In this document: positions 3,999 to 18,032 of the stretch, piece after piece | Layout of the letters: every line of letters starts with the position of its first letter | Position numbering within the stretch: position 1 is the first letter of the stretch | Origin: Geobacter sulfurreducens PCA | GTDB taxonomy: Bacteria; Desulfobacterota; Desulfuromonadia; Geobacterales; Geobacteraceae | Assembly: GCF_000007985.2 (NCBI RefSeq) | Contig: NC_002939.5 | Location: 2,940,001 to 2,972,000 of the forward strand | Direction: 5' to 3' | DNA length: 32,000 bases | Program-made: the position numbers and the translations under genes | Notes under the pieces: model-generated | What the model saw: only the letters and a program-made list of their open reading frames with translations | The model's database searches: none | Told to the model about the DNA's origin: nothing

Positions 3999-4083
3999 CC
4001 CTGTCACTTTTTCTTTCATTGCGGGCAGACAGCCGGCCATCCGCGCCGGACGGCCCCCACGCCCCACCCCGGCCTTCCTTCGC

Positions 4084-5376
4084 TTACTCCCCTTGGTCAG
4101 TCCCCAGCTTTGCCAGCAATTCCTCTTTCCCTGACACGCTCATCTTATCGTAAATCCGTTTCATGTAGGTCTTGACCGAAGATTCGGAGATGCCCAGCTC
4201 CCGGGCTGCCTCCCTGAACGTCATCCCTCGGACGACGCAGGCGAGGACCGACTTTTCCTGGTCGGAGAAGCGCTTGCGCAGACCCGGCGGAAGCATCAGC
4301 TCAAAGGTCGGCTCAGCGTTGCCGGCCTCGGCTTCCGCCTGATCAGCCATGCCTCCGATTGCCGGAATGGCCGCCACATCCAGGTGCTGTTCGCCTCGCA
4401 TGACCAGATAAAGAACAAGAACCGATGAAGTGAGGACGAGATTCGCTACAGCCACCACCAGTTGAGAGGCGTCGCCGATCAGGAGCGAGGCCGTCTTGCC
4501 TGCAGCTATGCCGGCGCAGGTGACCGCAAGACCGATGCCGAAGGCACGGCAGCTGTTTCTCTGGGCAAGAAGCAGCGCCAGCAGGTAGAGATCGAGGAAC
4601 CCCGCTGCCACCTGCATGGCGAACAGGGCCACGTTAACCGATGCCGCCCCGTCTATCAGAACGAGGGAAAAGGCGAACATGGCCATCACGATAGCCAGGG
4701 CCAGAAGCCCCTCCCTCCGGCGGCGCAGGAACATAAGCCCCACAAGGACGGCTACTACGTAAAAGGCGAGTTCGATCCCGGGAAGAAAGGCTGCCTCGGC
4801 ATATTCCTGGTACAGGGCCCCGTACATGAGACCACTTACGATCTGAAAAACGAACACGAAGGGGAGAAAGGGGGCCAGGTTCGATTCCCCGTCGGCTTCG
4901 TCCTGAGCCCCGGTGCGTGCCAGCGTGGGAACCAGAAGCAAGGCTGCCGCGGCCGGGAATTTCACGCTGTGGGGCACGGGAACGATCATGAACACGAAGA
5001 GCAGGACATTGGCCGCTGCCAGGCCGACTGCAGCCGATACCGCTACTGTGGGAGAGCGCTTCAGGATGCTGCCCGCCTTGACGCAAACAAAAGCTGATCC
5101 CACGCCGGCCGTGGCCAGAAACCAGGGGACTCCGGCAGGGACCTGGGCGATCAGCAGCGTCGAGCCTGCGGCGGCTGCTCCGCCGACGGCTGCCAGGGGC
5201 GGCAGCATCCGCCGCGGAAGAGCGGCGCCTATGACTGCCAGCGTAACGACGTGGGGAATGAGAAAAAAGAGGATAGCGTTGCCCGACCCGACGTGGGCCA
5301 GCAGGAATCCCTCCATGGGGAGGGCAAGGAGCCAGACGACAAAGGCGACAAAGGGAAGTGATGCTGTAAGGGTCAT
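4084..5376 (-). CDS. LuxR/FixJ-type HTH transcriptional regulator fused to a ~10-TM N-terminal membrane domain
   Basis: About 345 residues consist of consecutive hydrophobic helices. The C-terminus FSDQEKSVLACVVRGMTFREAARELGISESSVKTYMKRIYDKMSV is a GerE/LuxR HTH. The start is ATG 5376. Confidence 0.85.
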   Translation of the reverse strand: MTLTASLPFVAFVVWLLALPMEGFLLAHVGSGNAILFFLIPHVVTLAVIGAALPRRMLPPLAAVGGAAAAGSTLLIAQVPAGVPWFLATAGVGSAFVCVKAGSILKRSPTVAVSAAVGLAAANVLLFVFMIVPVPHSVKFPAAAALLLVPTLARTGAQDEADGESNLAPFLPFVFVFQIVSGLMYGALYQEYAEAAFLPGIELAFYVVAVLVGLMFLRRRREGLLALAIVMAMFAFSLVLIDGAASVNVALFAMQVAAGFLDLYLLALLLAQRNSCRAFGIGLAVTCAGIAAGKTASLLIGDASQLVVAVANLVLTSSVLVLYLVMRGEQHLDVAAIPAIGGMADQAEAEAGNAEPTFELMLPPGLRKRFSDQEKSVLACVVRGMTFREAARELGISESSVKTYMKRIYDKMSVSGKEELLAKLGTDQGE

Positions 5377-5428
5377 GGACGGGCCCGAACCAAGGATATC
5401 TGACTACGATTAGCCAAAACTATAGCAT

Positions 5429-5469
5429 GGTTGACAGCTTGGTCTACATTAATTTTGCCGGTTGACAGC
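5429..5469. repeat. Direct repeat GGTTGACAGC x2, 31 bp start-to-start; candidate regulator-binding sites
   Basis: The copies lie at 5429-5438 and 5460-5469 in the 311-bp divergent intergenic region between the membrane LuxR gene and the envelope operon. Similarity continues imperfectly (nnGGT...ATT) for about 10 more bp after each copy. Confidence 0.4.
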
Positions 5470-5687
5470 CGGGTGACTATTGGCCGGACGACAAATACCG
5501 ATAGGATGAGCAGCCCTGACGTATACACACCGCGCAACGACTGGCCGCAGACGCTCGCTCCGCCCTGTGGAGGGGAAAACGGGCCGGCGTCCCCACACGG
5601 AACGGGGGCCGGATTGTGATGGTCGCCCGTTGCCAGGTTCAACCCATCTATTGAATCGTATCACATCACATCATCGGGAGGGTTTTA

Positions 5688-7295
5688 ATGAAGCGACTGA
5701 AAAAGGCCCGGCGACTGCGGCTGCTCACGGCGTGGCTGGCAGTGGTGGCACTGGCGCCGGCCGCGGCACTGGCGGCTGAACACGAGATTCACGGCTCCAA
5801 CGACTTTTCGATTACCTACAATGACGTGCAGGGTGCCGGCGGGAGTCAGTCGTCCCTCACCGAGGGAACACGGTACCTGGAGATTCTCAACCTCTTCGGC
5901 AACGGCCGGGCGGGAGACTTCGACTACAACTGGACCGTGGGAGCCAAGGCTACCGACGACCGGCGCAATGACCAGAAGACCTTCTCTCTCACCAACCTCC
6001 AGGGCAGAGTCAGCAACAAGATCCACACGATCACCCTGGGCGACACCTTCGAGGCGTTCTCCCAGTACTCTCTCAACACTGCGGTCAAGGGCGGCTCCTA
6101 CAAGTTCACCCCGGAACAGTCCTATCTTCCCCAGTTGAGCCTCCTGTACGGCATCGCCTACTCCCGCTGGGATAACTTCTGGGGGGTGGACGCGGTGGAG
6201 CGGCAGGTGGCGGGCGGCAAAATCAGGCAGAACATCGGTCCGGACTTCTGGATCGGCCTGAGCGGAGTCCAGACCAATGATCACGTACGGGTCCTGGGCG
6301 GAGAGCTGACCAACCACCAGACCTGGACCGTCGACTGGGAATACCGCCCGATCCCCGGGCTCACCATCCAGGGGGAATCCTCGTGGCTCAACGGCGACAG
6401 GAGCCCGAGCGACGGCGCCCCCTTTGACGCCTACCACGGCCATGCCCACAAGGTGGTGGCCATCGGCGACGGCGGCCCCAGCCGGGTAACGCTCGAATAC
6501 GAGCGGGTCTCGCCCGAGTTCAGGACCACCATCGGGTCCGCCACTCCCGACCGGGAGAAGGTGAAAGCCAAGTGGCGCTACAAGTACAGCAAGGATCTCA
6601 GCATCACCAGCGCCATGCTCTGGTACCACGACAACCTGGACGGACAGAAGGCCTACGGCACCGACCACTACAAACCCGAGATCGCAGTCTCCCTGAAAAA
6701 ACCGTTCAAGCGCCAGTACGCGGTGGCCGACATCAGCTACAAGCTCGACCGGGCTTACAGTCCCGTGATGCGGAGCCTTGACCACTATATCACCATGGGA
6801 TACCGTGACCGCTTCGGCGTCCTGGACAGCGACTCCACCTTCGGCATCATCGTCTACGACCAGAACGGCACCGCCAAGCGCAAGGACGTGGAATTCACCT
6901 ACAACACCAGCCTCTCCAGCAGGCATACCCTGGGACGGTTCGTGCTGAAGCCCTCCATCTACCTGGGGGGCTGGACCCACAACGACGAGGTGGCCGAGAA
7001 CACCGACCAGATTGTGGAATACTCTGCCGGCTTGGGCGTGGACGTGCCCGACCTGAAGATAACCTCCACCATCAGGGTGGGCGAAAACCGTCTCCTCAAA
7101 GAGGCCGGCACCGATACGGCAAAGACCTTCGCCGGCGTGAACGTCTTCTGGCGGCCCGAAATGCTCGCCAAGGCGCAGGGGATGCTCTACGCCAAGGCGA
7201 GTGTCAATGACTTCCGCTACGACCCCAGCCTGGCCGCCGGCAGCCGGAACTTCCGGGAGACCAGCGTCACCGCGGGCATCAGCATCCAGTTCTGA
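5688..7295 (+). CDS. Outer-membrane beta-barrel protein, unclassified family
   Basis: GGGAGG RBS. The signal peptide is MKRLKKARRLRLLTAWLAVVALAPAAALA/AEHE. The composition is beta-strand-like, rich in Y/G/T/S/D, throughout. The C-terminus SVTAGISIQF carries the terminal aromatic residue typical of BAM substrates. Confidence 0.8.
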   Translation: MKRLKKARRLRLLTAWLAVVALAPAAALAAEHEIHGSNDFSITYNDVQGAGGSQSSLTEGTRYLEILNLFGNGRAGDFDYNWTVGAKATDDRRNDQKTFSLTNLQGRVSNKIHTITLGDTFEAFSQYSLNTAVKGGSYKFTPEQSYLPQLSLLYGIAYSRWDNFWGVDAVERQVAGGKIRQNIGPDFWIGLSGVQTNDHVRVLGGELTNHQTWTVDWEYRPIPGLTIQGESSWLNGDRSPSDGAPFDAYHGHAHKVVAIGDGGPSRVTLEYERVSPEFRTTIGSATPDREKVKAKWRYKYSKDLSITSAMLWYHDNLDGQKAYGTDHYKPEIAVSLKKPFKRQYAVADISYKLDRAYSPVMRSLDHYITMGYRDRFGVLDSDSTFGIIVYDQNGTAKRKDVEFTYNTSLSSRHTLGRFVLKPSIYLGGWTHNDEVAENTDQIVEYSAGLGVDVPDLKITSTIRVGENRLLKEAGTDTAKTFAGVNVFWRPEMLAKAQGMLYAKASVNDFRYDPSLAAGSRNFRETSVTAGISIQF

Positions 7296-7365
7296 CGGAA
7301 ATGGTGTATCCTTGACTGCACTGCGCCCGTACGCAGCCAAGCGGATGCCCCTCGGGAGGTTCACT

Positions 7366-7842
7366 ATGAAAGCCTATAGCGCCGGACTCTTCCTGCTGCT
7401 CGCCTGTGCCCTTCTTCCCGCCTGCGCGGGGCTGCAGATCGGCGGAGGCGGCGATTCGCCCTCTGCCCTGGCCATGACGAGCCACGGGCAGGTGAGGCAG
7501 ACCATCGACCGGCTCATCGCCGCCTATGAGGCAAAAGACAGTCGCGGCTTCTCCGAGTTGGTGAGCGAACGATACACGGGCGAGGCGGCCATTCTCGAAA
7601 CCGCCGTCCGGCGAGACTTCAGCGCCAACCACAACCTGGCGATCCGCTACACCGTCAACAACATTACCCTCGACGATGGCGGCAAGGCCTTTGCGGCCAT
7701 CACCTTCACCCGGTCCTGGACTGACGTCAAGACCGCCAGAACCATGAACGAAACCAGGGAAACATCCCTGGTGTTCATCCGTGAAAACGGCACCTACAGG
7801 CTCTACAGCCAGAACGGCCCGCCGCTGTTCGGGCTGCACTGA
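7366..7842 (+). CDS. Small exported protein / probable lipoprotein (158 aa) consisting of one NTF2-like (SnoaL/DUF4440-like) module
   Basis: GGGAGG lies 7 nt upstream of ATG 7366. The N-terminus is MKAYSAGLFLLLACALLPACAG, with lipobox-like LLAC/LPAC. The module begins IDRLIAAYEAKDSRGFSELVSERYTGE, a pattern typical of NTF2-like domains. The longer track ORF from 7201 overlaps the OMP gene and was rejected. Confidence 0.8.
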   Translation: MKAYSAGLFLLLACALLPACAGLQIGGGGDSPSALAMTSHGQVRQTIDRLIAAYEAKDSRGFSELVSERYTGEAAILETAVRRDFSANHNLAIRYTVNNITLDDGGKAFAAITFTRSWTDVKTARTMNETRETSLVFIRENGTYRLYSQNGPPLFGLH

Positions 7843-7877
7843 ACGAGCAGATACCCTTACCGATTCAGGAGGAATCC

Positions 7878-9218
7878 ATGAACGCAGTACGATTCTTTGT
7901 CATTCTGACCATGCTGGCCCTGCTGCCCGCCACCGGTCATGCCAAATGGTGGATCTTCGGGCAGGCGGAGAATGAGATCTCCACCCGCTACCTTTATCTG
8001 AACGGCATCTCCTACGACGAGCTGGGTGACAAGGTCACCATCTACCGGGAGACTCTGGACAACGGCCAGGTGGTCCTGCGGGGCAAGGCCGCCACCAGTT
8101 CGTCGGCAGTGGGCTCGGTGCAGGTCAGCACCACCAACAGGGAACGCTGGGAAAAGGCCCGCAAGACCTCCGACGGCAGCTTCGAATATGCCTTCCGCCC
8201 TGAAACGGGCGCATCCTACGTGCTCTACGTCAAGATCATCGACACCACCGGCAAGACCAACGACGTGGATGCCACCCGCAAGGAGATCGTCATCTCCGAC
8301 CGGAACATCTCGGCCCTCATCCGCCAGGCCCTTGATGAGCTGGTTGCGGCCTACCGGGCCGAAGACCCGGCCCGCTTCATGGCCCTTGTCAGCGAGGATT
8401 TCGCCGCGGACCCCGCCGTGCTCGACCGGGCCATCCGCCGGGATTTCACCGCTTTCGACAACATCGATCTGAGCTACACCCTGAACAACGTAACCGCCGC
8501 CAACGGCAAGATCTACGCCGGCTTCACCTTCAGCCGCAAGTTGACCTCTACCCGGAGCGGCCAGACCCTCTCCGACAAGGGTTCCAGTGAGTTCATCTTC
8601 AGCCTCGGGGAAAAGGGGCCGCTGGTGTTCAGCATGAAAAATCCTCTCATCTTCGGCCTCTCCGATGCCTCCAACGTGGCCACGGGCACGGTCAACACCG
8701 GCACGAACGAACCGGTGATCGTCGTGACCAGCAGCGGCGACGTTATCACCCAGCCGTTCACCGAGGCCATCACGACCATCGACAATGGCGGCGTGGTGCA
8801 AACGACAGCTGATACGGTAGAGGCGGGCAGTTTCACTCTCAGTAACAGTTGCCCCGAGGACTCGTGCATTCAGCCGGGATTCCTCTTCAGTTCACAGGAA
8901 GTGACGAACATGTGGACCGGTGACATCAATCTGGAAATCAACCTCATGTTCATCAAGAGCGGCATCGGAATCCAGAACCTGGGGGCGGTCGGCATCAATA
9001 CGGTGACCTCGGCCCCCGCAAGCGGCTATGTCGTTTCAGACGGAACCGGCCTTACCGGCTTCATCGTCGGCGACAACATCGGCAACACCTTTGCGTTCCA
9101 ATTGCTGAACGGCAAGTACGCCCTGCTGGAGGTGGTCTCCTACACCGATCTCGGCGCTGCCAAAACCCGCTCAACCTTCCGATACAAGTACCAACCAGAC
9201 GGAACCCGCAATTTCTAG
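7878..9218 (+). CDS. Exported 446-aa protein: N-terminal beta-sandwich-like region, central NTF2-like module, C-terminal beta-rich domain
   Basis: AGGAGG RBS. The signal peptide is MNAVRFFVILTMLALLPATGHA/KWW. Residues ~144-261 (nt 8307-8660) align clearly with the preceding lipoprotein. Confidence 0.8.
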   Translation: MNAVRFFVILTMLALLPATGHAKWWIFGQAENEISTRYLYLNGISYDELGDKVTIYRETLDNGQVVLRGKAATSSSAVGSVQVSTTNRERWEKARKTSDGSFEYAFRPETGASYVLYVKIIDTTGKTNDVDATRKEIVISDRNISALIRQALDELVAAYRAEDPARFMALVSEDFAADPAVLDRAIRRDFTAFDNIDLSYTLNNVTAANGKIYAGFTFSRKLTSTRSGQTLSDKGSSEFIFSLGEKGPLVFSMKNPLIFGLSDASNVATGTVNTGTNEPVIVVTSSGDVITQPFTEAITTIDNGGVVQTTADTVEAGSFTLSNSCPEDSCIQPGFLFSSQEVTNMWTGDINLEINLMFIKSGIGIQNLGAVGINTVTSAPASGYVVSDGTGLTGFIVGDNIGNTFAFQLLNGKYALLEVVSYTDLGAAKTRSTFRYKYQPDGTRNF

Positions 9219-9232
9219 CGGCACCAGTACCG

Positions 9233-9265
9233 GAGCCGGCAGGGAACGTCCTGCCGGCTCTTTTT
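9233..9265 (+). terminator. Intrinsic terminator/attenuator inside the operon
   Basis: The stem GAGCCGGCAGG / CCTGCCGGCTC is a perfect 11 bp with a 6-nt loop GAACGT, followed by TTTTT. It begins 15 nt after the stop of the 446-aa gene and ends 3 nt before the AGGAGG of the next gene. Confidence 0.7.
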
Positions 9266-9279
9266 GCAGGAGGAGATCC

Positions 9280-12200
9280 ATGAGAACCCTTATCCGCTGC
9301 GTCCTGTTCTGCCTGCTGCTCATTCCCGCCGCGGCCCGGGCCGATGACCAGGTAGCCATGGTGCAGGGACAGATCCAGATGGCTCAGGAGCGTCTGACGG
9401 CATACCAGGGGGAGCTGAGCAGCACCCTCTCCCTGCTGCAGAAAACTCCCAGCGAGGCCACCTTCCAGAAGATCAGGGACCTGCAGGACCGGATCCGGCG
9501 CCAGGGGAACGTGGTGGACACCCTGAGAATGGCCCTGCAGGATGCCCGGGCCGCCCAGAGCTGGAGCGCCCTGGTGAGCGACATGGCCAAGAACTCAACC
9601 ATCCTTGGGCTGGGCGCCGACATCGGGGTATCGGTCTATCAGTCGGGCAAGTGGATCTTCGGTGCCACCGATGATGAAATTTACGGCGAGAACTGGCAGC
9701 AGGTGGAGAGCTACAACGCGAAGCTGGTGGCCGAAGCTCGCGCCATCCGGGATGAGTCGAAGGCCATCCTCGGCGCCCTTGACCAGGTTAAGGCCCAGCT
9801 CAATGCCGGCGGCTCCGAGGAGCAGCTCCGCTCCCTGGCTGAAACCCTGTCGGCGCGGCTCCGGGAACTGCAGACCCGAGGGGAGCAGGTCAAAAAGAAC
9901 ATCCGCCTGCTGATCCGCATCTACCGGGCGGAAAAGGAAAATCTCCCTGCCTCGACCCTTTTTCACGGGGTCTTCATGGGGCGCTACACCGAAAAGATGG
10001 TGGAGGAATTCGACGCTTCCAAGCTGGTTGATCTGGTCATCGACGTCATCAAGGGGGATACCAACGACGCGCTGATCAAGCTCATCAAGCCCATGGTCAA
10101 GACCGCCGTGGGGGACTATCTGGCCAAGAATGCCGGCGGCGGGCACCTGACCCCGGAGATCACCGACGACCTGGTCTTCAAGATCCTCTTCGGCGGCGAG
10201 AGCGGCTTCGACGCCCTGATCCAGGACCGGCTCGGCGACGAGGCCGGCGGCGCAGCCATCAAGGGGCTCGTGAAGGAAGTGGTCGCGGCCGAAGCGAACC
10301 ACGTAATCCTCAAGTCCAATCAGCAGTTCTACGGGGCCATGAAGCGCACCCTGAGCACCATGCCTCCCACCGCCGACATCGTCGAGCATACGTTGGTGGT
10401 GGACACCACCGACCAACTGGTGAAGGAGCACAAATCCCTCGTGGAGAGCGGCGCCCGGGCCAAGGCCCAGCGGCTGGCCCAGACCGGCGAGGCAATCAAG
10501 AAAGTCTGGGACCTGGTGCTCAAGGACGCGGTGCAGGCATACCTGCAGAAGGATTCCTTCAACAACGCGGTCAAGGCGGCCGACGAGGCCTGCGAGACCT
10601 GGCGAGGGGAATGGCGCAAGGTCAGGGATGACATGATCCTGACCGAGGATGAGTACGTCAACCACCGCTGGTTCAAGGGGGGGCAGAATGCCGCGGCCCC
10701 TCCGAAACAGGTTGTTGGTGGGACGGAGGATACCGGTAAGACCTATGCGGCGTTCAATCCAGAAGAAGCCGGCAAGCTGCTCGAAGCCCGGAAGCGCCTC
10801 GTGGAGTCGGGTGTCGGGGAAGGGGGAAGTGCCGGCCTGGGAGATTTCGACGCCAACGAGGACGGCCTGGTGGTACTGGCCTGCAACGGCGGGATTCCCC
10901 TCGGACGGGTCGGCTTCGTCCCCCTGCGTGATGTCAAAAAGCTCACCTCCGCAGCACTGTTCGCGCCCTGCGACGAACTGAGCATCCGGCGCAGTGCCGA
11001 AATTGAGGCGGGATACAAGGCATGCGAACACCTCTGGAATCCGCAGTCGGTCAACGAATACTTCGCGTGCAAGGATGCCATGAGGGTCAAGAACAATGCC
11101 TACGCGGAAGAGATCAACCGGTGCATTGACACCAATGTCACCCAGCCCCACCAAGCATTTGCCCAGCGCCGGTTGGAACGGCACCGGCGGCTGAACGACT
11201 GCGAGACGAAACGCTATCAGGAAACGGTGAGGCGAATCCAGGCGGAGATCGCCCCCGCCGTCTCCTGGGCCGAGAGCGTGAGGGGTGACGTAGAGCGGCT
11301 CCAGGAGGCCATCAACAAGCTGCGGCGCTCCGGTCTCATGTACCCGGAAGCACCGCCGCGGCTCCCCGCGGACATCGGCGCAGCCGTTGAGGAGGAGGAG
11401 TACGACACCGCTTCTGCCGACGACAAAATTGCCATGATCCGAGCCAATCTGGGCATCACCAGGGGAATCGACGTGGCGGGCCTTGAGAGTGCCCTGGCCA
11501 GGGCCGACTTCGTGGTGGACTGGGCATCCGTTGACTCGGGCGGGACTCCGTACCTCTGCAAAGAGTTCGTCCTGAACAACCAGCCCGGAATCGAAGAGGT
11601 GGAGTGTACCGGGGGCTATTATGCCCAGGATGAGCAGCTGCTGCAGGACATGGCCCTGATCGCCACCATCAACCCATCGACGGTTCAGGAACTGGTGAGC
11701 CACGGCCGACAGCTTCCGGAGGTGGCCAACCGGCCCCTCCTGGAAGCCATGACCGGCTTCTCCCCCCAGGAAAGCGTCAACCTCTATCGGCAGGGGATGA
11801 GCCAGCGGAACCGGGCCAGGGCGGCCATCGATGGGGTGAACAGCCGCCTCCTGGACGTGGAGAACGTCCTGTCAGGCTCCTCCGTGGCGCAGATATCCCT
11901 CTACTACGACTACCAGTTCACCCCCTGGAAGGTCCGCCGGATCCCGACGCTCCTGGGCCAGGACCTGGACGCCCTCGAAGGGCACATCAGGGAAATGCGG
12001 ACCCGCTTCAACGCCGACAGACAGGTGGTCATCCCCGACTATGATGCCCTGCGGCGCGAAGCAGAGGCCGCCAGCGGCGCGGTGGCGCAGTACCGGGAGA
12101 TATACGGGCGGTATGCCGCCCTGCTGACCAAGCACTTCCCCACGGCGTTTGTCGATGAATTCTCCCCTCCCGACCTGAGCGGTCTCGTGTCGGCCATCGA

Positions 12201-13008
12201 TGCCCAGGCCTTCCTGGCGGAGCGGTATGCCGAGGAATTCAAGCGGGCCGCCACGGCCCTGGATGAAATGGAACGGGAGGTACAGGCCCTCCGCCGCCAG
12301 GAGGAGCAGTCCCTGAAGGGGCTGGAGATCTACCACCAGGCCAGGGCCGGCGCCGTCAAAAAGGCCGCCGGTTCCTGCGCCGCGCTCCCCGCAGACCCGG
12401 AGGGATGCCTCAAGGCCGTTGAGGAAAGCAAGGCTCAACTGCTGGCAATAACTCTGCAGGGAGACATCCTGACCCACTTCCCGTCGCAGAAGTACCGGGA
12501 CCGCCGCGACGAAATCCTGGCCGGCTCCCGAATTGACTACGACATCTATGCGTTGGAGGCAAAGGCAAAGGCGGCCATCGAACAGCGGGAACAGGACGAA
12601 ACCCGGAAACGCGAGGACCGGGAAACCAACGCCCCCCTGAGAATCGCCGAATTCTATCAGCAATTCCGCGGCGCCTATGAGGGGCGCAACGATTCACAAC
12701 TCATCAGCTTCCTTGGCGACGACTGGGAATCGGGCGACGGCACCACCCTTGCCGACCTCCAGGGCTACCTGCGGAACAGCTTCTCGGTGTTCGACGAAAT
12801 CCGCTACACCCAGAGCAATCTCCAGATCCACCCTGCTGCTCAGGGGGGTTACCGGGTCACCTACGATCTGGCCATAATCGGCAGGATCTATGCGGACAAC
12901 CTGACCCATGAGGAAAAATCCACCGTCAGTGAGGAACTGGCCTTCGACAACGGAGGGAAACTGCGGATCACAAGAACCACCGGCGGCCGCTTCTGGTCGG
13001 TGCAGTAG
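9280..13008 (+). CDS. Exported 1242-aa, predominantly alpha-helical/coiled-coil protein with C-terminal NTF2-like module; unknown function
   Basis: AGGAGG RBS. The signal peptide is MRTLIRCVLFCLLLIPAAARA/DDQ. Long heptad-like E/K/R/Q/A/L-rich stretches are present. Six Cys lie within ~110 residues (nt ~10880-11205). The last 126 aa (12628-13005) follow the same module pattern as the two upstream proteins. Confidence 0.85.
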   Translation: MRTLIRCVLFCLLLIPAAARADDQVAMVQGQIQMAQERLTAYQGELSSTLSLLQKTPSEATFQKIRDLQDRIRRQGNVVDTLRMALQDARAAQSWSALVSDMAKNSTILGLGADIGVSVYQSGKWIFGATDDEIYGENWQQVESYNAKLVAEARAIRDESKAILGALDQVKAQLNAGGSEEQLRSLAETLSARLRELQTRGEQVKKNIRLLIRIYRAEKENLPASTLFHGVFMGRYTEKMVEEFDASKLVDLVIDVIKGDTNDALIKLIKPMVKTAVGDYLAKNAGGGHLTPEITDDLVFKILFGGESGFDALIQDRLGDEAGGAAIKGLVKEVVAAEANHVILKSNQQFYGAMKRTLSTMPPTADIVEHTLVVDTTDQLVKEHKSLVESGARAKAQRLAQTGEAIKKVWDLVLKDAVQAYLQKDSFNNAVKAADEACETWRGEWRKVRDDMILTEDEYVNHRWFKGGQNAAAPPKQVVGGTEDTGKTYAAFNPEEAGKLLEARKRLVESGVGEGGSAGLGDFDANEDGLVVLACNGGIPLGRVGFVPLRDVKKLTSAALFAPCDELSIRRSAEIEAGYKACEHLWNPQSVNEYFACKDAMRVKNNAYAEEINRCIDTNVTQPHQAFAQRRLERHRRLNDCETKRYQETVRRIQAEIAPAVSWAESVRGDVERLQEAINKLRRSGLMYPEAPPRLPADIGAAVEEEEYDTASADDKIAMIRANLGITRGIDVAGLESALARADFVVDWASVDSGGTPYLCKEFVLNNQPGIEEVECTGGYYAQDEQLLQDMALIATINPSTVQELVSHGRQLPEVANRPLLEAMTGFSPQESVNLYRQGMSQRNRARAAIDGVNSRLLDVENVLSGSSVAQISLYYDYQFTPWKVRRIPTLLGQDLDALEGHIREMRTRFNADRQVVIPDYDALRREAEAASGAVAQYREIYGRYAALLTKHFPTAFVDEFSPPDLSGLVSAIDAQAFLAERYAEEFKRAATALDEMEREVQALRRQEEQSLKGLEIYHQARAGAVKKAAGSCAALPADPEGCLKAVEESKAQLLAITLQGDILTHFPSQKYRDRRDEILAGSRIDYDIYALEAKAKAAIEQREQDETRKREDRETNAPLRIAEFYQQFRGAYEGRNDSQLISFLGDDWESGDGTTLADLQGYLRNSFSVFDEIRYTQSNLQIHPAAQGGYRVTYDLAIIGRIYADNLTHEEKSTVSEELAFDNGGKLRITRTTGGRFWSVQ

Positions 13009-13162
13009 GCTTATTCCGCTGGAATCAACGTACTAACACGTGCATTGACTATTCGCCCCCCCTCAGTCGCCCTTATAAAATAGGGGGTAAGCCGAAGGCG
13101 GGGGGATAAGATGCGCTGTCGAGTAATCAGGTTTCGTCTTAGTATAACCGGGCGAGTTAATG

Positions 13163-13199
13163 ACAAGGCCCCGCCTGACTGCTGCCGGCGGGGCCTTGT
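13163..13199. terminator. Strong hairpin between convergent genes (bidirectional terminator candidate)
   Basis: ACAAGGCCCCGCC / GGCGGGGCCTTGT is a perfect 13-bp stem with an 11-nt loop, followed by TTGTTGTTG on the plus strand. It lies 20 nt beyond the stop of the minus-strand gene at 13220. Confidence 0.7.
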
Positions 13200-13219
13200 T
13201 GTTGACGCGTAGCGCTTCC

Positions 13220-15286
13220 TCAGAACCCGCGCAGGCTTTCCACCCGCGTGATCAGAGTCGCGCCCCGAATCCGCTCCAGTGTAGCGGTAACTACCGCCAC
13301 ATCGTTATCGAAAGAGCCGTGGGCAAGGGGTATCAGGCCTTGGCCGTCCGAAACCTTTTCCCGTTCCTTGCCGTGGACCCGCACGGGCCCCATTCCCCCC
13401 ATGAAGTTCCGCCACACGTCCACCTCGCCGGCGGCGCGCTGGTTCCAGAGGTCTGCCTGGCCGGGAACAGGACGCCACGCCCCTTCCATACCGAGAATCG
13501 GCATCTTGTGGTAGTCCTCCAACGCCCGGCTCACCAGGTAGAGGAGTGATTTGCCGTAGGGACCCACGGTGTCGGCGCGCTCCCGCTCGTCGCTCAGAAT
13601 ATCGAAGAAGAGGCGGTTCCGATCCACCAGCCCGCGATTGACGGCGGGAACGTAATGGGCCAGGGCAAAACCCACGGTGCAGGCCGGGGCGTAGAGCGAG
13701 ATGCTGGCCACGGGGATCTTTTTCTGACCCAGCCGGTCCAGGAGATGTCCATGGAGGATGGAACCGGCCGAGTGCCCCACGAGATGGATTTCCAGGGAGG
13801 GAATCTGTTTCCTGAGCTCGGCCAGGTGCCCGGCCAGGAGCGTCAGTCCGGCCTCGCGGTCCGCCGCGGCCGCGGCATTCTGCTTCATCTGCATCCAGAC
13901 CGGTTTGACGAGCAGGTTCTCGCTGGCAACCTCCACCGAGCGGTCCCGGGCGTCCTCCAGCCGGTTTTTGATGTCGTCCCACCACCCTCGCGACGGGTCC
14001 TGTGCCGAGGGTTTGAAGAATTTCCCCACGGCATCTTCGAGCATGCCGGCAATGCTCTCGCCGAAGCCGGTTTTCCAGGTCACGAACAGGGGATAGATGT
14101 CGTTGGCCAGGAAGTAGGGGGCCATGACCCTGATCCGCTTGATGGAGGCATCCTCGTCGTTGAGCCCCCCGTGGGCGTAAATGGCGAGCTTTGGTGCGCT
14201 CCTGCCCGACAGCCAGGCCAGCGGCAGGCGGTAGGTGGCCTCTTTCACGGCGCCGGCGGCATCGGACACGTCGAGGAACCGGTTGATGGGGCAGCCGTCA
14301 TTGCCGAGCACAACGGTGTGCTCATAGGCCCGGGATTCACTCAGGGGCTCCACGGCCGGATTCACATAGGTGAAGGGCTTGGAGGTGCTGCCCGAACTCC
14401 AGTACCACGCAGCCTTGCCGTTGGCCACTTCCTGGAGGGTCATGCTGCTCATGGTGCGCCCCTCGCCGCTCACGAGCATGGGGGCGCCCAGGACCGCCAC
14501 CCAGGCGTCGGAGCCATGCTGGATCCAGTCCTCGTAGGTCATGATGGCGAACCCCAGGTATCCCCAATCGTCTCCCCAGGAATTCTGCACGATGAACCCC
14601 TCCGGGGTGTAGCCCACCAGGGCGAAGGCGTGGCCCCCGGTCTCACCGGGTTGCATCCGGATCACCGGCAGGGTTGTCGAAGCATCCAGGAACCACCCCT
14701 TGTGGACCGCCGCCGAGACATAGACGGCCCCCACTTCGTTGATGGCCGCCTGCAGATCTGACACCGAATCCTTGTCGACCCGGTAATACGCTCCCAGAGG
14801 CCGCTGGGCCGCGTCCTGCTGCCACCCCTCCTTTGGGGGGACGAACTTCTGCTTGTAGGGCCAGAGCAGGTCGGTGCAGATGCCGTGGCGGTGCCACCCT
14901 TTCATGGCCCCGCGGCAGCTGGAGCCTTCGTAATCCTCACCGGGCCACTCATCATAGATACGGGCCATGTGGTAGAGCATCCGGGGACTCACCCGGGGAA
15001 CCTTTCCCCCCTTGCGGCCGCGCTGTTTCACCTCCTCCAGATGTTTGCGCCAGTTGAGGTAGTTGATGACCGCGGCCAAGCCGAAGCCGGTGCAGGCCCC
15101 TTCGGTCCCCTGGTCGAGGACCAGTTTGTGGACCTTGGTATAGTCGGCCAGAAAGGTGGTGATGAACGACGGATCGGGGTACTGGGGGGGAAGACTTACC
15201 AGTGGCGGATCGTAGCGGCGGTCACGGTAATCGACACGGTCGGGGCGGGCGTCGAAAATCCGTCCCTGGATTTCTCGCGTGGGCAT
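13220..15286 (-). CDS. Fusion protein: N-terminal papain-like (C1 family) cysteine peptidase + C-terminal DUF900-like alpha/beta hydrolase; no signal peptide
   Basis: The start is ATG 15286, with AAGGAGG 5 nt upstream. C1 motifs: DYRD, Q68...GAC74TGFG (Cys codon at 15092-15094), GGH228AFALVGY and VQN244SWGDDWGYLGF. Hydrolase motifs: LAIYAHGGLNDE, FVTWKTGF, HLVGHS515AGS (Ser codon 13769-13771) and a late LAHGSFD. Residue numbers follow the 697-aa track ORF. Confidence 0.85.
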   Translation of the reverse strand: MPTREIQGRIFDARPDRVDYRDRRYDPPLVSLPPQYPDPSFITTFLADYTKVHKLVLDQGTEGACTGFGLAAVINYLNWRKHLEEVKQRGRKGGKVPRVSPRMLYHMARIYDEWPGEDYEGSSCRGAMKGWHRHGICTDLLWPYKQKFVPPKEGWQQDAAQRPLGAYYRVDKDSVSDLQAAINEVGAVYVSAAVHKGWFLDASTTLPVIRMQPGETGGHAFALVGYTPEGFIVQNSWGDDWGYLGFAIMTYEDWIQHGSDAWVAVLGAPMLVSGEGRTMSSMTLQEVANGKAAWYWSSGSTSKPFTYVNPAVEPLSESRAYEHTVVLGNDGCPINRFLDVSDAAGAVKEATYRLPLAWLSGRSAPKLAIYAHGGLNDEDASIKRIRVMAPYFLANDIYPLFVTWKTGFGESIAGMLEDAVGKFFKPSAQDPSRGWWDDIKNRLEDARDRSVEVASENLLVKPVWMQMKQNAAAAADREAGLTLLAGHLAELRKQIPSLEIHLVGHSAGSILHGHLLDRLGQKKIPVASISLYAPACTVGFALAHYVPAVNRGLVDRNRLFFDILSDERERADTVGPYGKSLLYLVSRALEDYHKMPILGMEGAWRPVPGQADLWNQRAAGEVDVWRNFMGGMGPVRVHGKEREKVSDGQGLIPLAHGSFDNDVAVVTATLERIRGATLITRVESLRGF

Positions 15287-15291
15287 GGCGG

Positions 15292-15374
15292 CCTCCTTGT
15301 CACCAGCGGGCATAGGATAATGCCCTTATTTGATTGATGAAAGTCTGCCACACTTTTCAATGGTGACAAGGAGG
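15292..15374 (-). promoter_or_regulatory. Structured 5' leader: perfect 14-bp stem sequestering the Shine-Dalgarno of the peptidase-hydrolase gene
   Basis: The plus strand has CCTCCTTGTCACCA at 15292-15305 and its exact reverse complement TGGTGACAAGGAGG at 15361-15374. In the minus-strand mRNA, the upstream CCUCCUUGUCACCA therefore pairs with UGGUGACAAGGAGG, which contains the SD. The 55-nt loop holds two smaller hairpins (UGAAAAGU/ACUUUCA and GGGCAU/AUGCCC). Confidence 0.55.
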
Positions 15375-15385
15375 GAATATTGTTT

Positions 15386-16285
15386 TTACGGGCGGCCGGA
15401 CCGGTTCCGGGGGCCTACGGCCAGCAGCGCGAGGCCGCCGAAAATGAGCAGGATGCCGCCGAGTGAGGTGAGGGTAAGGCGTTCGCCTACCACCGTTACG
15501 CCGAGAATGGTGGCGGTGAGCGGCTCGGCCAGGGAGAGAGTCACGGCGCTTGCCACCGGCACCGTTTGAAGCCCCCGGGCGAAGAGGCGGTAGGAAAGGG
15601 CCGTGGCAATGAGCCCCAGGTGAAGGACCACCACGGCACCGCGCACCGAAGGGATCCAGGAGAGGTCGGCGCCCACCAGGAGCGGCGCCAGTAACAAGGC
15701 CCCGAGACAGAAAGCCACAGCAATGACCGCATCCGGGGAGCGGCCGGCCAGAAGCGTTTTGATTGCCAGGGTATAGGCCGCATAGGAGAGCCCCGCGCCC
15801 AGGGCCAGGGCGATGCCCAGCGGATTGACGCTCACTTCGCCACCGGTGGCCAGGAGCAGGGAACAACCGGCCACGGCAAGCGCAGTGGCACCGGCCCAGC
15901 GCCGCCCAGGCCGCTCGCCGAGCACCAGGAATGCCAGAATCCCGGCCATGACCGGCGAACTGCCGATGCCCACCATGGTCCCCACTGCCACCCCTGTCGT
16001 CTTGACCGCCGCGAAAAAGGTCAGCTGGTAGGAGGCGATGCAGCCTCCCGCGCAGAGCGTGGGGATGAGGGGCCAGCGCATGCCCTTCGTGAACCCGCCC
16101 CGGGCCACGGCCAGGAGCAGGAGTGCCAGCCCCCCCACCGCCAGCCGGAGGGCGCCGATGGTCATGGGATTGGCCCCCACGGGAGCGAGGGCCTGGGATG
16201 TGCCCGTGGTCCCCCACAGGATCGCCGCCGCCAGGATGAACCACGCCCCTCCCCTGCCCGCTTGTGCCATGCCGCTACCGCCCAT
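15386..16285 (-). CDS. EamA/DMT-superfamily transporter (10 TM)
   Basis: The protein is polytopic, with ILWGTTGTSQ and a duplicated EamA-like half architecture. GGGAGG lies 6 nt upstream of ATG 16285. Confidence 0.85.
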   Translation of the reverse strand: MGGSGMAQAGRGGAWFILAAAILWGTTGTSQALAPVGANPMTIGALRLAVGGLALLLLAVARGGFTKGMRWPLIPTLCAGGCIASYQLTFFAAVKTTGVAVGTMVGIGSSPVMAGILAFLVLGERPGRRWAGATALAVAGCSLLLATGGEVSVNPLGIALALGAGLSYAAYTLAIKTLLAGRSPDAVIAVAFCLGALLLAPLLVGADLSWIPSVRGAVVVLHLGLIATALSYRLFARGLQTVPVASAVTLSLAEPLTATILGVTVVGERLTLTSLGGILLIFGGLALLAVGPRNRSGRP

Positions 16286-16333
16286 GCCATGCCTCCCTGT
16301 TGTTCCCGTCTGCCGCCATACCTCTGTGCCGCA

Positions 16334-17242
16334 TCACTTCGCCCGGGCCAGGGCCACCACGGCGCCCAGCACCAGGGCGGCACCCGCCAGTTGCACGCCC
16401 CCCAGAGATTCGCCCAGGATCAGCGCCGCCAGGACCAGGGTCACCACCGGCTCAAGCGTTGAGAGGGTCGCCGCGTCGGCGGCCCCCAGGCGTTGCATGC
16501 CGGCGAAGAAGCCGACCATGGCCACCACGGTGGAAAAAAGGGCTATTCCGACTACGGCTCCCCAGCCGGCCAGCCCCGTGGGCCAGTGAGGCCCCTGCCA
16601 GATCACGGCGCAGCCATAGACCGTGGCCGCCGCAAGCATGATGACGGTTGCCGCCGGAATGGCGCCGGTGCGGCGAGACACCTGCTCCCCCACGAGGATG
16701 TAGCCCGTATAGATGACTGCCGCGCCGGCGCCGAACGCTATTCCGGACAGGCTGCCGGTCAGACCGTCGGCCACGGTCAGCAGGATGCCAATGAGAGAGG
16801 CCGCAACGGCCGCTACCTTGAGGGGCGTCAGCCGCTGACGGCCCAGAGCTGCCGAGGCCAGGGTGACCAGGGCCGGGTAGAGATAGAGCAGGAGCGCCGT
16901 AAGGCCGGCGGACGCATAGCGCAGGGACGTGAAATAGCAAAAAGCCTGGCCCACGTAGCCGATGGCGCCCATGCCGACCAGTATCCATAAATCGCGGCCC
17001 CGGGGCCAGGACAGGCGCAGGACGGGCATCAGGGCAGCCATGAGCACCCCCGCCACCAGGAACCGCAAAAAGAGAACCACGGCGGTGGAGGCGCCCGAGG
17101 CAAACGCCACCTTGCCGAAGATGCCCAGGGCGCCGAACCCCACGGCCGATGCCGCCACAAAGGCCGCCCCGGCCAAGCGGGGGCCAACGAGAGAGTGGCT
17201 GACGCGGTCCTGCCGGGTAGTGTGCAACGATTCGAGCGCCAT
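16334..17242 (-). CDS. EamA/DMT-superfamily transporter (second, tandem)
   Basis: The protein is polytopic and has two EamA-like halves. I prefer the start at ATG 17242 (MALESLHT) over the long R/G-rich extension to 17347. Confidence 0.85.
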   Translation of the reverse strand: MALESLHTTRQDRVSHSLVGPRLAGAAFVAASAVGFGALGIFGKVAFASGASTAVVLFLRFLVAGVLMAALMPVLRLSWPRGRDLWILVGMGAIGYVGQAFCYFTSLRYASAGLTALLLYLYPALVTLASAALGRQRLTPLKVAAVAASLIGILLTVADGLTGSLSGIAFGAGAAVIYTGYILVGEQVSRRTGAIPAATVIMLAAATVYGCAVIWQGPHWPTGLAGWGAVVGIALFSTVVAMVGFFAGMQRLGAADAATLSTLEPVVTLVLAALILGESLGGVQLAGAALVLGAVVALARAK

Positions 17243-17378
17243 GCGTTCCTGTTCCTTTCCCGGCCGCCACATACCGGGGGGCCGGCCGCAAATGCCGCAT
17301 AGTACACGAATGCGGCGGTTCTGTCCTCTATTTTGAGCACATGACACCGAGCCACCGTACCCTGCTCACATTTTATTA

Positions 17379-17406: not shown

Positions 17407-17576
17407 AGAAGCAAAAGGACTGATCACTACGAAAGGGGTGTCGAGTCATGAGACGTCAAACTGAACTCAAGACCGTTCACAGAAGTGATACGGATAGAAT
17501 GCATACGGTGAAAAGATCGACCAGAAGCGGCTCCTCAACGGACAGAAGCATGTCGATGGCGACTCCCCGCGAGAGC

Positions 17577-18032
17577 ATGCCCATGTCGTCAACTGTAACG
17601 AACCCGTTCCGCGAAATGGAGCGGTGGTTCGAGGAATCTCTGAACCGCCCCTTCTTCGGCATGAACTGGGTTCCCTTCCGCAACCTGATCAACGACCTGG
17701 GGAATACCGGCGAACTGATGCCCGCCGTAGACATGTTCGAAGAAGGGGAGCACCTGGTGGTGAAAGCCGAACTGCCGGGTATTTCCCGGGATGATCTGAA
17801 CCTACGGATAGTGGATGGCAACCTGATCATTTCGGGCGAAAAGAGGTCCGGGGAAACGGTCGAGCGGAGCAACTACCTGCGGCTCGAACGGCATCACGGC
17901 TCCTTCACGCGGACGCTGAGACTGCCTGATGGTCTCGATACCGAACACATCAAGGCCAGTTTCAGAGACGGAATACTGGATGTCCGCATCCCGAAAACCG
18001 AAAGCACCGTCCGGCAGATCACCGTGGAATGA
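17577..18032 (+). CDS. Hsp20/alpha-crystallin family small heat-shock protein
   Basis: The alpha-crystallin domain reads PAVDMFEEGEHLVVKAELPGISRDDLNLRIVDGNLIISGEK...GSFTRTLRLPDGLDTEHIKASFRDGILDVRIPK. The start is uncertain: the ORF is open from ATG 17448, but its first ~33 codons have low GC3 and five AGA codons. ATGs at 17550, 17556, 17577 and 17583 give a typical ~150-aa sHSP. Confidence 0.85.
   Translation: MPMSSTVTNPFREMERWFEESLNRPFFGMNWVPFRNLINDLGNTGELMPAVDMFEEGEHLVVKAELPGISRDDLNLRIVDGNLIISGEKRSGETVERSNYLRLERHHGSFTRTLRLPDGLDTEHIKASFRDGILDVRIPKTESTVRQITVE

Follow-up and report, generated by a model that had tools for sequence, protein, structure and literature searches.

The stretch of DNA analysed here, referred to below as the window, comprises 32,000 nucleotides (nt) of Geobacter sulfurreducens PCA (contig NC_002939.5, positions 2,940,001 to 2,972,000). 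Its minus strand carries a gene for a two-domain hydrolase. An earlier annotation made from the letters alone (the sequence-only reading) had described the product as a papain-like cysteine peptidase joined to a DUF900-like serine hydrolase, and had speculated that it is a toxic effector or a defence protein. The positions of the gene, its domains, its catalytic codons and two nearby hairpins are collected in Table 1.

Read from its first ATG, the open reading frame (ORF) on the minus strand spans 13220..15313 and would encode 697 residues. A second ATG at 15286 opens a 688-residue protein beginning with MPTREIQ and is preceded, 6 nt upstream, by the Shine-Dalgarno (SD) sequence AAGGAGG; in the family alignment, 34 homologues start at the equivalent Met. 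We prefer the ATG at 15286 over that at 15313 because of this SD spacing and the starts of the homologues. The residues given earlier as Q68, C74, H228, N244 and S515 are all present, but their numbers are 9 too high for the preferred start, since they had been counted from the upstream ATG while the start at 15286 was quoted. A sister strain (locus L001) encodes a protein that is 98% identical.

Every motif quoted in the sequence-only reading was found in the translated ORF. In the numbering of the 688-residue protein, those of the peptidase are DQGTEGACTGFG (Q59, C65), GGHAFALVGY (H219) and VQNSWGDDWG (N235), and those of the hydrolase are YAHGGL (H372-G373-G374), TWKTGF (W404-K-T-G407) and GHSAGS (S506). 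The proposed fusion of a complete C1 peptidase with an alpha/beta serine hydrolase is borne out by Pfam, by a profile match to the PDB entry 3OIS, by structural models and by the invariance of the residues concerned.

Table 1. Features of the two-domain hydrolase gene and of its flanks (window positions).
Feature	Position	Strand	Basis
Coding sequence of the two-domain hydrolase, 688 residues (stop codon 13220..13222)	13220..15286	-	ORF, SD sequence, homologue alignment
Predicted papain-family (C1A) cysteine peptidase domain, 3OIS type, residues ~10-268	14483..15259	-	Pfam, profile, Foldseek
Catalytic Cys65 codon (GACTGFG), predicted	15092..15094	-	Invariant in 35 homologues; aligned to the 3OIS catalytic Cys motif
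Catalytic His219 codon (GGHAFALVGY), predicted; Asn235 follows in VQNSWG	14630..14632	-	Invariant; aligned to 3OIS
Inter-domain linker, residues ~269-312	14351..14482	-	pLDDT ~47-62 in the full-length model; sequence partly conserved
Predicted alpha/beta-hydrolase domain (lipase/esterase-like, DUF900-related), residues ~313-688	13223..14350	-	AlphaFold, fold neighbours, Pfam matches of the clade
HGG372-374, putative oxyanion-hole motif	14165..14173	-	Invariant; aligned to HGG of yeast serine hydrolase 1VKH (non-significant match)
Putative nucleophile Ser506 codon (GHSAGS elbow)	13769..13771	-	Invariant; directly after strand 499-505; aligned to lipase GHSxG
Asp572 codon, probable triad acid	13571..13573	-	Invariant; after strand 559-564
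His656 codon (LAHGSFDND), probable triad His	13319..13321	-	Invariant; after the last strand, 651-653
Leader hairpin	15292..15374	-	Anti-SD arm 15362..15374 CCUCCUUGUCACC pairs with SD arm 15292..15304 GGUGACAAGGAGG
GC-rich hairpin between convergent genes, possible bidirectional terminator without U-tract	13163..13199		Folding

Two predicted catalytic domains in one protein

The N-terminal domain is predicted to be a C1A cysteine peptidase with Gln59, Cys65, His219 and Asn235 as its catalytic residues. The Pfam family Peptidase_C1 (PF00112) was matched at 36.6 bits against a cutoff of 20.7 (E-value 6.5e-9, residues 120-251), which places the domain in family C1 by profile. The same family was matched by 51 of the 52 sequences scanned, the exception being a C-terminal fragment of the window protein that does not contain this domain. 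A profile built from 35 family members aligned with 3OIS, which we take to be xylellain, over residues 15-264 (E-value 1.3e-16); the Gln, Cys, His and Asn motifs fall at matching positions. Their counterparts in 3OIS are DQG..GSCT, GGHA (within GGHAVLCVGY) and NSWG (within IRNSWG), so that the full set of C1 catalytic residues is accounted for. As in papain, the Gln stands six residues ahead of the Cys. The full-length AlphaFold model has a predicted local distance difference test score (pLDDT) of 76 and a predicted template modelling score (pTM) of 0.75. When it was used as a Foldseek query, papain, cathepsin K and silicatein were returned at probability 1.0 (E-value ~1e-8, target template modelling score (TM) ~0.7), identifying the two-lobe papain fold.

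The entry 3OIS is given as xylellain, a cysteine protease of Xylella fastidiosa, in reference 70 of PMC10380794. With xylellain and other short bacterial C1A peptidases the window protein shares alignable catalytic motifs and the lack of both a classical I29 propeptide and a signal peptide. It differs from xylellain, a single-domain enzyme of 291 residues, in its C-terminal alpha/beta hydrolase of 380 residues and in an insertion separating the DYRD motif from the catalytic Cys. The N-terminal region of xylellain reportedly covers its active site. According to PMC10380794, prokaryotic C1A peptidases without a signal peptide are intracellular, and multidomain prokaryotic C1A proteins exist, which were left unanalysed in that study. 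Stand-alone C1 domains of the 3OIS type are also common in IMG/VR viral contigs (L095-L173; for example L096, 8001..8765). They correspond to the N-terminal half only, at 22-48% identity, and the contigs include some of jumbo-phage size as well as giant-virus bins. These viral domains agree with the horizontal transfers of C1A peptidases reported in PMC10380794.

A linker of about 90 residues had been proposed between the two domains. The stretch modelled at low confidence is half as long (~45 residues, ~269-312), residues 313-365 being modelled confidently as part of the hydrolase domain. Since fold searches with the full-length model were swamped by papain matches, the C-terminal half was modelled separately. 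The AlphaFold model of residues 303-688 alone (pLDDT 84, pTM 0.86) shows alternating strands and helices, with a helical, lid-like insertion at ~408-494. Alignments and models together display the hallmarks of an alpha/beta hydrolase: the GHSAG elbow directly after a strand, a conserved acid and His further on, and the HGG motif. Asp572 and His656 would complete the triad, an assignment made from the canonical order of residues and from their positions after the last strands rather than from model geometry. Foldseek matches of this half are weak (best E-value 6e-3 in the PDB and 1.1e-3 in a viral library, TM at most 0.33), and nearly all of these neighbours are lipases, cutinases, a phospholipase-type DDHD domain or thioesterases (TesA).

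Among the alpha/beta-hydrolase families of Pfam, DUF900 (PF05990) fits the clade best: 16 of the 52 members matched it at E-values of 0.1 or less (best 1.7e-5), and one relative, P0190, passes its threshold (22.3 bits versus 20.5). The window protein itself gave no DUF900 match, either at full length (E-value up to 1) or with its C-terminal half (E-value up to 0.1), and is not assigned to that family. The label 'DUF900-like' is therefore fair for the clade, but the window protein falls below DUF900 proper. Taken with the models, these matches lead us to predict that the C-terminal domain is a DUF900-related alpha/beta serine hydrolase of lipase or esterase type.

DUF900 has been described as functionally uncharacterised (PMC11878206). 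Of the DUF900-related proteins, we found a function demonstrated only for cinquedea, a secreted archaeal phospholipase A shown to kill bacteria; it is encoded by a single gene whose neighbours are uninformative (bioRxiv 10.64898/2026.06.10.730825). The window protein resembles DUF900 proteins in being a predicted hydrolase of Ser-Asp-His type with a G-H-S-x-G elbow, and cinquedea also in that its single gene has no neighbours that hint at a function. Cinquedea, however, has a signal peptide and a single domain, and the window protein shows neither trait.

In an alignment of 35 sequences reaching down to 55% identity, both catalytic sets are invariant; HGG, S506, D572 and H656 are likewise invariant across 27 sequences reaching down to 39% identity. 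Neither the window protein nor its relatives have a signal peptide or a transmembrane segment. The highest hydrophobicity over 12 residues at the N-termini of the family is 1.13, compared with 2.96 in a neighbouring secreted protein used as a control, in agreement with the absence of an export signal noted before.

Two further features of the hydrolase domain are conserved. An A-P-A-C motif (residues 533-536, with Cys536), situated just past the strand that follows the nucleophile, is found family-wide. The C-terminal tail (residues 675-688, V-E-N/S-L-x-G-F) is also conserved, and its extended conformation is confidently modelled even without the peptidase domain.

The family and its peptidoglycan-directed fusions

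A word-indexed search returned more than 7000 homologues; of the top 120, almost every one spans ~100% of the query, with identities of 53-98%. An exhaustive search of 1.84 billion cluster representatives (50% identity) gave 6910 matches at E-values up to 1e-3 and 661 at E-values up to 1e-30, the best of them mostly two-domain proteins of 660-730 residues. When 185,579 genomes, one per species, were scanned, at least 581 carried the family. The carriers belong to Desulfuromonadia, Gamma-, Beta- and Alphaproteobacteria, Nitrospirales, Planctomycetota, Methylomirabilota, Verrucomicrobiota and Campylobacterota, to which later searches added Bacteroidota, Acidobacteriota and anammox Planctomycetes. 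Chromids and megaplasmids of cultured bacteria carry full-length copies too. Among the cultured carriers are Ideonella dechloratans CCUG 30977 (43% identity), Pseudomonas vranovensis DSM 16006, Solimonas flava DSM 18980, Roseateles puraquae CCUG 52769, Gimesia alba and Flavobacterium akiainvivens; Hymenobacter daecheongensis DSM 21074 has the Amidase_2-fused form. In 50,697 phage genomes there was no full-length copy and the matches were partial ones to the C1 domain, while the viral-contig matches held a single full-length copy, located in an island flanked by an integrase gene and tgt; a phage origin was ruled out on these grounds.

Public annotation of the family goes no further than 'C1 family peptidase'. 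A scan of NCBIfam found no specific model for it and gave nothing meaningful, and we found no description of the peptidase-hydrolase fusion family in the literature. The architecture, which had been called unusual, is not rare, being present in hundreds of species and 661 clusters, but it is indeed uncharacterised. Within this large, uncharacterised family of stand-alone genes, built from known catalytic superfamilies, the window protein is unexceptional.

About 19 of the best 150 representative clusters exceed ~825 residues, and they owe this length to N-terminal additions. We scanned 20 relatives, mostly such long forms, against Pfam and found peptidoglycan-directed modules of five types above the Pfam cutoff. 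Amidase_2 is fused to four of them (P0214, P0229, P0237 and P0244; E-values from 1e-9 to 1.8e-18), the PF11860 N-acetylmuramidase to P0266 (1.6e-53), GH19 to P0204 (1.1e-9; weaker in P0190, P0192 and P0207), PG_binding_1 to P0197 (4.7e-5) and Tlde1_dom to P0222 (1.4e-8). A Phage_lysozyme match in P0129 lies just under the cutoff (3.7e-4). None of the extended relatives has a signal peptide. Tlde1 is a known type VI secretion system (T6SS) effector that targets peptidoglycan (PMC12994826).

The cores of the module-carrying relatives are ~38-60% identical to ordinary two-domain members. The Tlde1- and Amidase_2-fused proteins, with cores 55-60% identical, nest among such members and do not form a remote sister family. 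Independent fusions of one core with several wall modules amount to good 'Rosetta-stone' evidence, suggesting that the core works in the cell envelope and in the same process as the modules.

The surroundings of the fused genes vary. Two Tlde1-fused genes sit in islands of conflict type: the first (locus L092, region 4067..13893) is flanked by RHS repeats, with a TPR-CHAT gene ahead of it and genes for Trypco1 and Trypsin_2 behind it, and the second is flanked by ApeA-HEPN. A CRISPR-Cas locus is found ~5 kb away from one Amidase_2-fused gene; another such gene is located after a polysaccharide-synthesis cluster and ahead of a further Amidase_2 gene. Secretion-system and phage-tail genes were absent from the neighbours of the GH19- and Amidase_2-fused relatives.

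Some relatives carry other additions, namely DUF7379 (E-value 2.7e-60) with a weak DUF7362 match in P0233 (1159 residues) and a weak Vps62-like match in P0255 (1025 residues). The long N-terminal regions of P0216, P0250 and P0263 have no Pfam match. Relatives beside conflict modules of protease type were seen at the L092 locus given above, at L090 (1189..8821) and in the plasmid matches H27 and H29. On plasmid pRle248d of Rhizobium leguminosarum, a distant homologue adjoins genes for a trypsin-like protease, a caspase-family protein and a YEATS-associated helix protein, and on plasmids of Paracoccus and Roseivivax the C1 domain occurs inside proteins annotated as trypsin-like peptidases.

Possible roles of the protein

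We favour, with a probability of roughly 45%, the reading that the protein is an envelope-directed lytic or antagonistic hydrolase using a Sec-independent route. Its esterase head would hydrolyse ester-linked envelope lipids (phospholipids or the acyl chains of lipoproteins), its peptidase head would cut envelope proteins or peptide tethers, and the third, fused head of some relatives would cut peptidoglycan. The protein might be released, or loaded onto a secretion device, and act against other cells, to which it would presumably be toxic; it might also act from inside its producer as a self-lysis enzyme. This reading draws on the Peptidase_C1 score above cutoff, the match to 3OIS, the papain folds, the hydrolase model with its invariant residues, the weak lipase, cutinase and phospholipase neighbours and the DUF900 matches of the clade. 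What points to the envelope is that relatives carry peptidoglycan-directed fusions in the absence of signal peptides. Further support comes from cinquedea as a bactericidal DUF900-related phospholipase A, from the RHS, CHAT, Trypco/trypsin and ApeA genes beside Tlde1-fused relatives and the CRISPR-Cas locus near an Amidase_2-fused one, and from the sequestered SD sequence at this locus, which fits tight control.

A number of findings weigh against the envelope-directed reading. No significant solved relative of the hydrolase half was found by fold or by profile (best E-value against PDB sequences 0.12), which makes 'lipase' a guess from the fold neighbourhood. We know of no C1A peptidase that cleaves peptidoglycan, and the fusions occur in a minority of the family (~19 of 150 clusters), which does not include the window protein. 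The leader hairpin (Table 1) has no covariation support, nor did an alignment with more distant relatives yield a supported common structure.

The genomic setting weighs in the same direction. We surveyed the neighbours by calling ORFs in 80 loci and clustering them by all-against-all BLAST. The gene stands alone, as the sequence-only reading had it: no conserved neighbour family emerged, and the largest one, found in 12 of the 80 loci, is a set of GGDEF proteins whose distances from the gene are scattered. The genes directly next to it are singletons in nearly every case, and synteny is confined to the level of genus or family (in Nitrospirales, Undibacterium and Steroidobacteraceae). Nor does any immunity-like, VgrG/Hcp/PAAR, holin or phage gene recur next to it across these loci. 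Both in the window and in divergent relatives the flanks are mostly housekeeping genes (EamA transporters, HSP20, ALAD, LeuA, COX15, pncB and glnA), and PADLOC-DB v2 gave no family at E-values up to 1 for the window protein. Conservation within the family is strong (mean column identity 58% in the 35-sequence alignment), and identity roughly follows taxonomy. Strong conservation, synteny and identity that tracks taxonomy are together what one would sooner expect of a stable physiological gene than of one in an arms race.

Such a gene could encode a cytoplasmic housekeeping or stress enzyme that turns over recycled muropeptides, lipopeptides or damaged or acylated proteins and has no role in conflict. 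This is the main rival, and we regard it as somewhat unlikely. It would agree with the lack of signal peptides and transmembrane segments across the family, with a gene that has its own intergenic regions and lies alone among housekeeping genes, with the strong and partly vertical conservation accompanied by local synteny, and with the missing immunity gene. Within the Geobacter-like lineage, moreover, the gene keeps an HSP20 gene as its neighbour. Counterparts of two of the fused modules function in cytoplasmic recycling, Amidase_2 being the family of AmpD and the L,D-carboxypeptidase chemistry of Tlde1-like enzymes resembling that of LdcA. The reported intracellular location of prokaryotic C1A peptidases without signal peptides (PMC10380794) also speaks for such an enzyme. 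GH19, GH24, the PF11860 muramidases and PG_binding_1, however, have polymeric peptidoglycan as substrate or ligand, a polymer absent from the cytoplasm. A housekeeping role is also hard to reconcile with the patchy spread of the family (at least 581 of the 185,579 species genomes), with the variants located in conflict-type islands and with the absence of a metabolic operon partner from every lineage represented in the 80 loci.

The remaining alternatives are sub-cases of the envelope-directed reading and differ in the cell they would attack. Were the producer itself the target, the gene would be a single-gene abortive-infection or programmed-lysis system: a latent enzyme, once triggered, would degrade the inner membrane from inside, the peptidase (and a fused wall hydrolase, where there is one) would reach the envelope, and the cell would lyse. 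Neither an export signal nor an immunity gene is needed in such a model, and a wall hydrolase without a signal peptide, paired with a lipase that might breach the membrane, follows the logic of an endolysin awaiting a lesion. Sequestration of the SD sequence suggests restrained expression, and ApeA, CHAT, Trypco-trypsin or CRISPR-Cas genes are found close to some fused variants. We nonetheless consider this model doubtful, as the protein has no recognisable sensor domain and no PADLOC match, the gene is flanked by housekeeping genes and is not phage-borne, and its high conservation and stable synteny are atypical of such genes. Neither this locus nor most of the others is a defence island.

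The fused relatives resemble multi-domain phage endolysins and the LysA/LysB lysis enzymes of mycobacteriophages in combining a wall hydrolase and a wall-binding module, without signal peptides, with an esterase-type alpha/beta hydrolase, and cutinase-like folds, as in LysB, are among the weak structural neighbours of the hydrolase half. The differences are that the family is not phage-encoded, that the window protein has no wall-hydrolase domain and that no holin or spanin gene lies nearby. One can picture a 'one-protein lysis cassette', a speculative scheme to which we attach little weight, in which a latent cytoplasmic enzyme would use its lipase head as a holin and its papain-type head as a spanin that cuts the tethers between outer membrane and wall, the wall itself being cut by the fused head or by the cell's own autolysins. 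Such a cassette might serve programmed self-lysis, as altruistic defence or for the release of public goods, and would need no export signal, immunity or partner gene; we hold this use to be just as speculative.

Were other cells the target, the protein could be a classical contact-dependent antibacterial effector with a periplasmic target, for example a T6SS cargo, which we judge improbable. Like the T6SS effectors Tlde1, Tae and Tle, it has no signal peptide and would present hydrolytic heads to the envelope; a lipase-like and a peptidase head recall the activities of Tle and Tae, and one relative is fused to Tlde1_dom beside RHS-repeat genes. Its domains are nevertheless of C1A and DUF900-like type rather than those of Tae (NlpC/P60-type) or Tle, and no T6SS linkage was found, vgrG, hcp, PAAR and adaptor genes being absent at the inspected loci and among the ten neighbouring window ORFs scanned. 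No immunity gene adjoins it: the few short ORFs downstream on the same strand show no relation to one another across the 80 loci.

The toxin or defence role put forward in the sequence-only reading is unproven. It draws indirect support from the fusions to peptidoglycan modules, Tlde1 among them, and from the conflict-type islands of some fused variants. Its specific forms fare less well, given the empty PADLOC result, the lack of a conserved immunity or secretion neighbour and the housekeeping flanks in the window and at most loci.

If the envelope-directed reading is correct, thousands of genes annotated as 'C1 family peptidase' would constitute a new family of bacteriolytic enzymes spanning Desulfuromonadia, Proteobacteria, Nitrospirota, Planctomycetota, Bacteroidota and other phyla. 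An unusual pair of heads with neither an immunity nor a secretion partner would then raise the question of how the protein is delivered and how it is restrained. The reading would also give a functional context to DUF900-type hydrolases and to short 3OIS-like C1A peptidases, and might provide modular lytic enzymes for applied use. If the protein is instead a cytoplasmic housekeeping enzyme, the family represents an ordinary annotation gap.

Leader, downstream hairpin and neighbouring genes

The 99-nt leader that follows the stop codon of an EamA transporter gene matches its earlier description as AT-rich and structured. Its GC content is 46.5%, compared with 62.8% in the window, and its minimum free energy (MFE) is -38.5 kcal/mol (z-score -6.2), none of 200 shuffled sequences being as stable. 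The AAGGAGG sequence (15292..15298) is paired with a probability of 0.9, and the pairing of the two 13-nt arms is perfect. The anti-SD/SD pairing is retained in the sister strain L001. Sequestration of the SD sequence in a strong hairpin fits tight control of expression; in a transcript that contains the upstream arm, the hairpin would hold translation back. Strong sequestration is limited to the closest relatives, the median z-score of leaders in the family being -0.2. A scan of the window against Rfam gave no match, which means that the leader does not correspond to any known riboswitch or thermometer.

A different element was observed in Nitrospirales, where seven loci (L022, L023, L024, L026, L030, L033 and L035) share TCATCAGGAG[G/A]ATGA ~15 nt upstream of the homologue start. 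This TCATCAGGAG element forms a small hairpin that displays the SD sequence in its loop.

Downstream of the gene, a strong terminator had been proposed. A strong hairpin is present there, with 16 pairs in an interrupted stem, 12 of them contiguous (80-nt MFE -36 kcal/mol, centroid -31.7 kcal/mol, z-score -4.2), but it lacks a U-tract and was not reported by a terminator scan.

On the other side of this hairpin, the convergent strand holds four successive genes (5688..13008, plus strand) for proteins of 535, 158 (from 7366), 446 and 1242 residues, with starts resembling signal peptides or lipoboxes. None of the four has a Pfam match. The 158- and 446-residue proteins have in common a domain of 116 residues (38% identity, E-value 1e-24); an apparent likeness of this domain to the C-terminus of the 1242-residue coiled-coil protein is not significant (E-value 0.29). 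Beside these genes lies a divergent gene for a LuxR/GerE-type regulator (4084..5376, minus strand). The cluster, which is also present in L001, has the look of an operon for the envelope or cell surface and is uncharacterised. A functional tie between it and the hydrolase gene was rejected, since the cluster is missing beside the homologues in L002, L004, L006 and L008.

Two tandem EamA-family transporter genes separate the hydrolase gene from an HSP20 gene; the region concerned covers 15386..17347 on the minus strand and 17448..18032 on the plus strand. At the Geobacter sp. locus L002, whose homologue is 74% identical, HSP20 adjoins the gene directly in divergent orientation, and synteny extends over HSP20, DMT_YdcZ and DUF2127. 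Given this arrangement, the EamA pair looks like an insertion/deletion difference internal to the lineage.

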